Origin: Thermoplasmatota archaeon
GTDB taxonomy: Archaea; Thermoplasmatota; JAKEGO01
DNA length: 52,775 bases
Direction of reading: 5' to 3'
NCBI GenBank assembly: GCA_028279595.1
Contig: JANQNK010000009.1
Coordinates: forward strand, 1-52,775
Shown: piece after piece, positions 49,678 to 51,351 of the stretch
How the letters are laid out: each line of letters begins with the position of its first letter
Position numbering within the stretch: the stretch's first letter is position 1
Position numbers and translations under genes: made by a program
The notes under the pieces: model-generated
Seen by the model: the letters and a program-made list of their open reading frames with translations, nothing else
Told to the model about the DNA's origin: nothing
Database searches by the model: none

Positions 49678-51351
49678 ATGAGCGGAAGGGGAAGTGGGCG
49701 TGATTTCGTCCACGAGATCATTGACGACCACAACCGGAACGGTCGGTTCGACGGCCGGATCCGTACGCGTTTTCCTCCGGAGCCGAACGGCTACCTGCAC
49801 ATCGGCCACGCCAAGTCCATAGCCCTCAACTTCGGGATCGCAGAGGAGTACGGAGGCAAGTGCAACCTCAGGTTCGACGACACCAACCCGACCAAGGAGG
49901 GCGACGAGTACGTAAACTCGATCATCGAGGACATCCGGTGGCTCGGATTCGACTGGGAGGACAGGCTCTACTTCGCGTCCAACTACTTCGACCAGCTCTA
50001 CGACTGGGCTGTCGAACTGATCAGGATGGGGAAGGCCTACGTCGACGACCTTTCTGCCGAGGAGATGTCCGAACACCGGGGCACTCTGACCACCCCGGGT
50101 AAAGACAGCCCGTTCAGGGACAGGTCAATGGAGGAGAACCTCGACCTGTTCGACAGGATGAGGAAGGGCGAGTTCAAGGATGGCGAGAGGGTCCTCAGGG
50201 CGAAGATCGACATGGCCCATCCGAACATGAACATGCGTGACCCAGTCATGTACAGGATCCTTCACGTTCCCCATCACAACACCGGCGACAAATGGTGCAT
50301 CTATCCATCCTACGACTGGACCCACGGCCAGTCCGACTCCATCGAGGGCATCACGCAGTCCATCTGCACCCTGGAGTTCGAGAACCACAGGCCGTTGTAC
50401 GACTGGTTCCTCGATCAGCTCGACATCTACCATCCACAGCAGATCGAGTTCGCCAGGCTGAACATCTCGTACACCGTAATGTCCAAACGCAGGCTCCTTC
50501 AGCTCGTGGAGGAGAAGCACGTCAACGGATGGGACGATCCAAGGATGCCAACGCTTTCCGGGATGCGGAGGAGAGGGTACCCGCCGTCCGCCATCCGGGA
50601 GTTCCTCTCCAGGGTCGGCGTGGCAAAGGTCAACTCGACCATCGCCGTCGAACTCCTAGAGCACATCGTCAGGGAGGACCTGAACCGGACAGCTCCGAGG
50701 TACATGGGCGTCCTCGACCCCCTGAGGGTCGAGATCGAGGGCGTCGGCGACAGGGACGACTTCATGGATGTCTCCGTCAATCCCGAGGACCCGTCCGCCG
50801 GGACGAGGAAGGTCCCTTTCTCGAAGGACATATTCATCGAACGTTCGGACTTCATGGAGGACCCGGTGAAGAAGTTCCACAGACTCTCCCCCGGAAAGGA
50901 GGTCAGGCTGAGGAATGCCTACCTGGTGACGTGCACCGACGTCGTCAAGGACGACGGGGAGGTCGTCGCACTGATCTGCAAGGCCGACCCCGACTCCCGG
51001 GGAGGGAACGCTCCGGACGGAAGGCGCGTCAAGGGTACCATCCACTGGGTCTCGGCGCCTCACGCGGTCAATGCGGAGGTACGCCTCTACGACAAGCTCT
51101 TCACGGTCGAGGACCCGCTCTCCGAGAAGGGTGATTTCCCCGACTACATCGACGAGGATTCGTTGAAGACGTTGAACGACTGCAAGGTCGAACCTGCGGT
51201 CTCGGACCTGGGGATCGGCGAGTCGTTCCAGTTCGAGCGCCTGGGATACTTCTGCAAGGACCCTGACACGTCCGACGACGGCATCGTCCTCAACAGGACG
51301 ATAACCCTCAGGGACACCTGGGCCAAGATACAGAAGCAGGCTCAGAAATGA
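49678..51351 (+). CDS. glnS: Glutamine--tRNA ligase (bacterial-type GlnRS)
   Basis: [93 protein letters not shown]. Confidence 0.93.

Follow-up and report, generated by a model that had tools for sequence, protein, structure and literature searches.

A bacterial-type glutaminyl-tRNA synthetase linked to a tRNA-Gln gene in an archaeal genome in which GatDE was not found

The indirect route to Gln-tRNA-Gln, that of a glutamyl-tRNA synthetase of the non-discriminating kind (ND-GluRS) and GatDE, is used by 'almost all archaea' (PMC8762117). Reviews treat this two-step route as universal among archaea and have stated that no archaeon has a glutaminyl-tRNA synthetase (GlnRS) (PMC2978374, 2010; PMC5388404, 2016; PMC9499178, 2022), the reason given being that archaeal tRNA-Gln, with A1:U72 and A73, is a poor GlnRS substrate (PMC2978374, PMC5388404, PMC9499178). 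Transfer of GlnRS to Archaea has been mentioned in a passing remark (PMC8879553), and a 2024 preprint described GlnRS beside cox genes in Heimdallarchaeia (bioRxiv 10.1101/2024.07.04.601786). Our literature search returned no paper with the phrase 'archaeal GlnRS' and none linking GlnRS to Thermoplasmatota, and a search on GlnRS with Thermoplasmata or Heimdallarchaeota returned nothing relevant. Here we report on a 52,775-nucleotide stretch of archaeal DNA (the window; contig JANQNK010000009.1 of assembly GCA_028279595.1), from a genome whose phylum is most likely Thermoplasmatota. It carries a glnS gene predicted to encode a bacterial-type GlnRS, and the organism most likely charges glutamine onto tRNA directly.

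In the described enzymes, GlnRS differs from GluRS in having Cys229 instead of the glutamate-binding arginine, together with His215, Ser227, Gln255, Arg30 and Tyr211, His215 keeping Arg30 off the substrate; a loop that unpairs the acceptor end (E. coli residues 132-141, with Leu136) and a loop that recognizes G36 (residues 392-407, with Arg402) are present in GlnRS and not in archaeal ND-GluRS (PMC2978374). The identity set of the bacterial GlnRS:tRNA-Gln pair comprises U1:A72, G2:C71, G3:C70, G73, G10 and the YUG anticodon (PMC1865053), and the identity of archaeal tRNA-Gln comprises A1:U72 and A73 (PMC9499178). The window gene and the parts of its product that bear on these comparisons are:

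49678 to 51351, plus strand: glnS, bacterial-type glutaminyl-tRNA synthetase of 557 amino acids, with an ATG start and the stop codon within the coordinates
49798 to 49809, plus strand: HIGH motif, residues 41-44 (E. coli H40-H43), placed by alignment
50074 to 50103, plus strand: loop unpairing the acceptor end, at residues 133-142 (E. coli 132-141), Leu137 matching E. coli Leu136 in a gapless alignment to E. coli GlnRS
50359 to 50385, plus strand: SICTLEFEN, residues 228-236, holding two residues of the glutamine pocket, Ser228 (E. coli S227) and Cys230 (E. coli C229)
50476 to 50490, plus strand: VMSKR at residues 267-271, which is the KMSKS motif of class I enzymes
50692 to 51261, plus strand: the pair of anticodon-binding beta-barrel domains, at residues 339-436 and 454-528 (Pfam PF03950 and PF20974)
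50851 to 50898, plus strand: G36-recognition loop, residues 392-407, with Arg402 kept and His401 for E. coli Lys401, placed by alignment

The 557-residue product scored 721.8 bits against the NCBIfam glnS equivalog TIGR00440 (cut-off 425.8), in agreement with the genome-wide search, and 357.1 bits against the archaeal gltX model TIGR00463, which is under the cut-off of 401.75. The class I E/Q catalytic domain PF00749 was matched at residues 28-336. An exact-protein look-up of the product found no entry on record; database naming based on TIGR00440 would already label it glutamine--tRNA ligase. An earlier reading made from the letters only (the sequence-only reading) had described an intact GlnRS of this length with a beta-barrel C-terminus, host-like codon usage and an archaeal-type HD neighbour, and each of these points held. 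The open reading frame (ORF) runs from ATG to stop at exactly 49678-51351 on the plus strand; HIGH, VMSKR, a further 15-residue segment and SICTLEFE (residues 228-235) are all present; and both anticodon-binding domains were matched by Pfam. Codon choice in glnS lies at the 95th percentile of genome-typicality among 1032 long ORFs, and the neighbouring HD protein has PRK12703 (C-terminal part) and TIGR00295 as its best models. These findings indicate that the gene encodes an ordinary-looking glutaminyl-tRNA synthetase and not an archaeal GluRS.

Residue columns were compared across three sets of GlnRS (28 from the same phylum, 3 Heimdallarchaeial, 75 bacterial) and rows of archaeal GluRS. The full set of glutamine-pocket residues was kept in the window protein (R31, Y212, H216, S228, C230 and Q255) and was invariant across the phylum, Heimdallarchaeial and bacterial GlnRS, whereas the archaeal GluRS rows, including the GluRS of the same genome, had Arg at the C229 position and hydrophobic residues at the pocket positions. 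The unpairing-loop Leu column was L, V, I or F in 28/28 phylum GlnRS. The anticodon contacts R341, R410, R412, Q517 and R520 (E. coli numbering), which include those to U35 and C34, were conserved, the U35 contacts being Gln518 and Arg521 of the window protein. Relative to E. coli, two tRNA-contact positions were changed, Lys401 to His and Asp235 to Asn236, the latter within SICTLEFEN. Asp235 of the E. coli enzyme is the acceptor-stem contact. The E. coli variant 1QRS, with Asn at 235, outscored the wild type marginally against the window protein because of that Asn, and Asn was found at this position in 23/28 phylum GlnRS. As an archaeal hallmark the Asn was rejected, since the bacterial column also varies (D 38, V 18, N 8), and it is kept only as a lead.

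The window is the whole of one contig (C3; labels of this kind are our own handles for contigs, genomes, loci and families) of a 2.29-Mb genome in 21 contigs, estimated to be 86% complete and 0.2% contaminated. A separate archaeal GluRS gene was found on C4 (114302-115963; 558 bits against TIGR00463, above cut-off), an AsnRS gene on C2 (378 bits, above cut-off) and two tandem glutamine synthetase genes (glnA) on C20. No GatD, GatE or GatB was found in the search of this 86%-complete genome, and the GatB/YqeY domain (PF02637) was not found in the whole-genome search either as a stand-alone protein or fused. GatD, GatE and GatB were likewise not found in any of the three species representatives that make up the order (86, 73 and 82% complete), all of which are GlnRS-positive; the probability of missing a present GatDE locus in all three by incompleteness is approximately 0.007. 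GatDE is thus most likely truly absent from this genome. In one GatDE-less genome, G002, a 197-amino acid frame (G002:C43:13757-14128, minus strand) resembles the C-terminal GatE/YqeY-like region alone, and weakly (E = 2.7e-4), and may be a stand-alone YqeY-type tRNA-binding domain.

When 401 species of the same phylum were scored, GlnRS was above cut-off in 73, in about a dozen families and in single-contig genomes among them; named public records with GlnRS nested among these genomes are 'Thermoplasmata archaeon' and 'Methanobacteriota archaeon', which is the basis for naming the phylum as most likely Thermoplasmatota. GatE was not found in 28 of the 73 GlnRS-positive species, including two with closed genomes, G324 and G396, and G174, which is in 7 contigs. 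Among the 40 nearest relatives, GatE was above cut-off in all 31 GlnRS-negative genomes, even at 63-68% completeness. The difference (28/73 versus 0/31 without GatE) gave a Fisher p = 8e-6, which is overstated since the test assumes independence and the genomes are kin. On the GluRS tree, taken as a rough proxy for the species tree, GatE status requires at least 8 changes, and the lineages nearest to this one, f37 and f35 (88-93% complete), are also without GatE. Loss of GatDE appears, then, to have occurred repeatedly and only in the presence of GlnRS, which fits the prediction of functional replacement. This quantified link between GlnRS and repeated GatDE loss is new here, and it provides good comparative evidence that GlnRS took over from GatDE in this lineage.

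The window also contains a tRNA-Gln gene that the sequence-only reading had not listed. The surroundings of glnS are:

47779 to 47786, plus strand: AT-rich TATA-like element approximately 25 nt 5' of the tRNA gene, read from the sequence; putative archaeal promoter
47809 to 47880, plus strand: tRNA-Gln(CUG) with an archaeal-style body and no encoded CCA (ARAGORN; Rfam RF00005, 57.9 bits)
48230 to 49609, plus strand: tnaA (tryptophanase; NF009709, 707 bits), with a 68-nt gap to glnS
49629 to 49638, plus strand: TATA-like 'gatatatcta' approximately 40 nt 5' of the glnS ATG, read from the sequence; putative own promoter of glnS
51353 to 51877, minus strand: HD/HDIG protein downstream of glnS, best models archaeal (as given above)

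The tRNA-Gln(CUG) gene shares the strand of glnS and lies 1.8 kb 5' of it, beyond tnaA. The tRNA has A1:U72, G2:C71, C3:G70, G10, the anticodon C34-U35-G36 and, at 47880, the discriminator G73. Homologues of this tRNA were found 0.1-1.5 kb from glnS in nearly all GlnRS-positive genomes examined, often with the UUG isoacceptor on the opposite side. A tRNA-Gln gene was linked to glnS in 2/3 Heimdallarchaeial loci and in 4/75 bacterial loci. The discriminator of the linked tRNA-Gln was G73 in 12/26 GlnRS-positive and 0/15 GlnRS-negative genomes. As an obligatory adaptation, G73 was rejected: the GatE-negative genomes G002 (same order) and G082, G145 and G173 (all three of f35) carry A73 on the linked tRNA, and the tRNA-Gln(UUG) of this very genome has A73. 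Among GlnRS-positive genomes, G73 showed no significant tie to GatE loss (8/4 versus 4/8, p = 0.22).

Some neighbouring observations are recorded here in their own right. The tnaA gene may be co-transcribed with glnS and is not part of the Gln-tRNA system; it occurs in 12/41 relatives, though elsewhere in the genome, and neither of the other two species of the order has it. Genome G016 has two near-identical tRNA-Gln(CUG) genes (G016:C144:5271-5341 and G016:C136:5763-5833; loci L097 and L011), one by glnS and one by gatD/gatE, which looks like a separate copy for each pathway. A tRNA-Gln-like gene just 3' of glnS in G005 (L008:3175-3247) was given the anticodon CUG by ARAGORN and has an atypical anticodon stem-loop (6-bp stem, C33). 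In a Heimdallarchaeota metagenome-assembled genome (JAUWEG010000059), a tRNA gene (L056:6538-6612; tRNA-??? in ARAGORN) whose acceptor stem resembles that of tRNA-Gln and whose anticodon loop has 6 nt ('tttagg') lies between two tRNA-Gln genes near glnS.

Taken together, the gene, its residues, its surroundings and its distribution suggest that this is probably a long-resident, working GlnRS that became the sole source of Gln-tRNA-Gln after the loss of GatDE in this genome and its order. The enzyme, as a class Ib GlnRS, would activate free glutamine, which the two glnA genes could supply, and would join it directly to tRNA-Gln(CUG) and tRNA-Gln(UUG), the archaeal-style tRNAs of the organism itself. 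The unpairing loop, through Leu137, would open the weak A1:U72 pair as it does U1:A72 in bacteria, and the YUG anticodon would be read by Arg341, Arg402, Arg410, Gln518 and Arg521. The linked CUG isoacceptor would have taken up the bacterial discriminator G73, which, perhaps with Asn236 facing C3:G70, may tune the fit at the acceptor end. The indirect route of ND-GluRS and GatDE would have been lost in the genome and the order, leaving GlnRS as the only source of Gln-tRNA-Gln. In a cell that has AsnRS but not GatCAB, charging would be direct for both amide amino acids. Lastly, without GatDE, the archaeal GluRS would have to be discriminating, presumably making harmful Glu-tRNA-Gln no longer, or Glu-tRNA-Gln would have to be excluded downstream.

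Several observations weigh against this reading. GatE is present in 45/73 GlnRS-positive genomes, and at 86% completeness GatDE could sit in the unassembled part of this genome. The second isoacceptor, tRNA-Gln(UUG) on C18, has the archaeal A73, and both tRNA-Gln have C3:G70 and not the bacterial G3:C70, so that efficient recognition of these tRNAs by the enzyme is an assumption. Furthermore, a comparison of 67 GluRS from GlnRS-positive genomes gave no column or indel that follows the loss of GatE in both of the GluRS subtypes (0.36 was the best shared frequency difference, and lengths did not differ), and thus no GluRS change that would account for the avoidance of Glu-tRNA-Gln mischarging. 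The two subtypes are themselves an observation apart: the archaeal GluRS of the phylum (L130-L196) fall into two deep groups with approximately 31-34% mutual identity, f14/f38/f3 versus the rest, with a support of 100.

The first two of these points speak for a coexistence of both routes, with a functional GlnRS and a GatDE encoded in the missing 14% of the genome. Such coexistence evidently occurs elsewhere in the phylum. Against it here stand the absence of GatD and GatE from 3/3 species of the order, with the low joint chance given above, the absence of GatE from the nearest lineages f37 and f35, and the retention of GatE by every GlnRS-negative relative even in far less complete assemblies; we consider coexistence in this organism unlikely. 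The tRNA data raise instead a division of labour, in which GlnRS would serve only the linked G73 tRNA-Gln(CUG), or have some role other than bulk charging, and the UUG isoacceptor would be charged by another, unrecognised route. The restriction of G73 to the linked isoacceptor, with A73 kept on the unlinked UUG tRNA, speaks for this, as do the two tRNA-Gln(CUG) copies of G016, one by glnS and one by gatD/gatE. However, no amidotransferase of any type was found in the genome to serve the UUG isoacceptor; the GatE-negative G002, G082, G145 and G173 have A73 on the linked tRNA, so the GlnRS clade evidently copes with A73; and the catalytic and anticodon-reading residues are all intact, E. coli GlnRS itself reading both C34 and U34. 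We consider a division of labour quite improbable.

GC content at glnS is that of its flanks. At third codon positions the GC of glnS is 0.86, against a genome mean of 0.75. The contig opens on the final 388 bases of an archaeal 23S rRNA; it also encodes both subunits (A and B) of topoisomerase VI, a helicase/ERCC4 nuclease of the Hef type and a regulator of the HVO_0163 type. It is very unlikely that mis-assembly or mis-binning placed bacterial DNA at glnS in an archaeal contig: the protein shares 60-66% identity with GlnRS from Chloroflexota, Acidobacteriota and Planctomycetota, but the gene has an archaeal-style tRNA-Gln on one side and an archaeal HD gene on the other, sits on a contig that is archaeal throughout, has native GC and codon usage in a genome with 0.2% contamination, has as its nearest relatives 28 same-phylum GlnRS in one clade with single-contig genomes among them, and recurs beside archaeal tRNA-Gln in dozens of related genomes, closed ones included.

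Trees of GlnRS were built from the 28 phylum and 3 Heimdallarchaeial sequences with 52-75 bacterial ones (the best 75 matches to the query) and archaeal GluRS as outgroup, eukaryotic GlnRS being left out. In these trees the window protein grouped with bacterial GlnRS, far from the GluRS of its own genome. The phylum GlnRS formed one clade, with SH-like approximate likelihood ratio test (SH-aLRT) support of 99 in a quick tree and ultrafast bootstrap (UFBoot) 94 / SH-aLRT 100 in a careful tree, and the Heimdallarchaeial GlnRS formed a separate clade (100/100). Both archaeal clades fell inside the bacterial radiation, on a backbone with UFBoot values of 5-60 and with an outgroup branch of 2.55 substitutions per site. 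In approximately unbiased (AU) tests, a joint Thermoplasmatota and Heimdallarchaeial GlnRS clade was not rejected (p = 0.61), nor was forcing the f14/f38/f3 GlnRS into one clade, after the deep A/B split of GluRS (p = 0.58); both constrained searches beat the likelihood of the free search, and the internal support values need caution. Separate acquisitions by Thermoplasmatota and Heimdallarchaeia, as read from the quick tree, were withdrawn in view of the joint-clade p-AU of 0.61 and the higher constrained likelihood. Transfer of glnS within the phylum, as read from conflicts of the topology with family codes and the GluRS tree, was withdrawn in view of the p-AU of 0.58.

GlnRS appears to have entered the phylum once or a few times, long ago. 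The sequence-only reading had proposed that this lineage gained direct glutaminylation by horizontal transfer, possibly replacing GatDE. The identity of the enzyme and the failure to find GatDE bear out part of that proposal. A transfer particular to this lineage does not stand, as the acquisition is old and common to a large part of the phylum, and the trees do not settle donor or direction. That the Thermoplasmatota and Heimdallarchaeial GlnRS are one old archaeal clade, basal to bacterial GlnRS rather than nested among them, is a rather improbable arrangement. If it were true, GlnRS would have been in archaea at about the time of eukaryogenesis, and a revision would be due for the transfer direction accepted so far (eukaryote to bacteria, never archaea); the supposed tRNA-Gln 'orthogonality barrier' would then have been breached by the conserved cassette of tRNA-Gln and glnS, its identity retuned by G73 on the tRNA and Asn235 in the enzyme.

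Elsewhere in the window, right after the 23S rRNA end, a 2854-amino acid ORF (611-9175, plus strand) with Ig-like, CARDB and NEW3 repeats probably encodes a giant surface protein. Positions 18000-24100, possibly an integrated element, show a GC dip (0.48) with a tyrosine integrase (20801-21631, minus strand) and several flanking ORFs without a family match. At 31000-33000, GC drops sharply (0.42 versus approximately 0.59) in an island that adjoins the topoisomerase VI genes and holds an ORF of 515 amino acids (31290-32837, plus strand) with no Pfam or PHROG match. Two adjacent proteins of like build (45004-46056 and 46115-47437, both minus strand), with an N-terminal zinc ribbon (CPxCG...C..C), transmembrane segments and a very acidic tail, gave no confident family.

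This genome, together with approximately one in five of the species sampled in the phylum, contradicts the statement that no archaeon has GlnRS. The explanation by poor substrates becomes testable with natural material, as the same GlnRS clade occurs in four settings, with A73 or G73 tRNAs and with or without GatDE. A further prediction, of something not yet described, is that the archaeal GluRS discriminates or that some other safeguard acts against Glu-tRNA-Gln. GlnRS/tRNA-Gln pairs that occur in nature with an identity part bacterial and part archaeal could also serve as orthogonal pairs in genetic-code engineering.

Compared with the known systems, the window enzyme is closest in build to the bacterial one. 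The GlnRS of E. coli (PDB 1GTR, 1QTQ, 1O0B) and P. aeruginosa (5BNZ) aligned to it at approximately 680 bits and near gapless over residues 8-551, and bacterial GlnRS share its length, domain order, HIGH and VMSKR motifs, glutamine pocket and both loops. They differ in setting, as bacterial glnS is rarely beside tRNA-Gln (4/75 loci), whereas the window glnS is linked to one and has an archaeal host. The partner differs as well: bacterial tRNA-Gln has U1:A72 and G3:C70, and the tRNA-Gln of this genome have A1:U72, C3:G70, G37/A38 in the anticodon loop and G73 on one isoacceptor only. The best NCBIfam model was the Deinococcus-type GlnRS/YqeY fusion NF011291 (830 bits, cut-off 681), but only model positions 13-563 of 769 were matched, the window ORF ending after the anticodon-binding domain at residue 557, and D. 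radiodurans GlnRS (PDB 2HZ7) scored 510 bits, below E. coli GlnRS. Eukaryotic GlnRS structures (human, yeast and others) scored 405-473 bits and have an appended N-terminal domain, whereas the window protein has only approximately 25 residues before the catalytic core. With 60-66% identity to bacterial enzymes, the unpairing loop and no eukaryotic N-terminal domain, it is of the bacterial type. The archaeal ND-GluRS of M. thermautotrophicus (3AII) scored 181 bits; the ND-GluRS and GatDE route (NCBIfam TIGR00463, TIGR00134 and TIGR02153) has the same GlxRS fold and beta-barrel anticodon domains and leads to the same end product, Gln-tRNA-Gln, but ND-GluRS has Arg at the substrate side-chain position and is without both discrimination loops, whereas the window protein has Cys and both loops. 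Another archaeal counterpart lies in the Heimdallarchaeia (e.g., Ca. Heimdallarchaeum aukensis, CP084166), whose GlnRS is likewise bacterial-type, with 56-58% identity to the window protein, the same pocket residues and, often, a linked tRNA-Gln gene.

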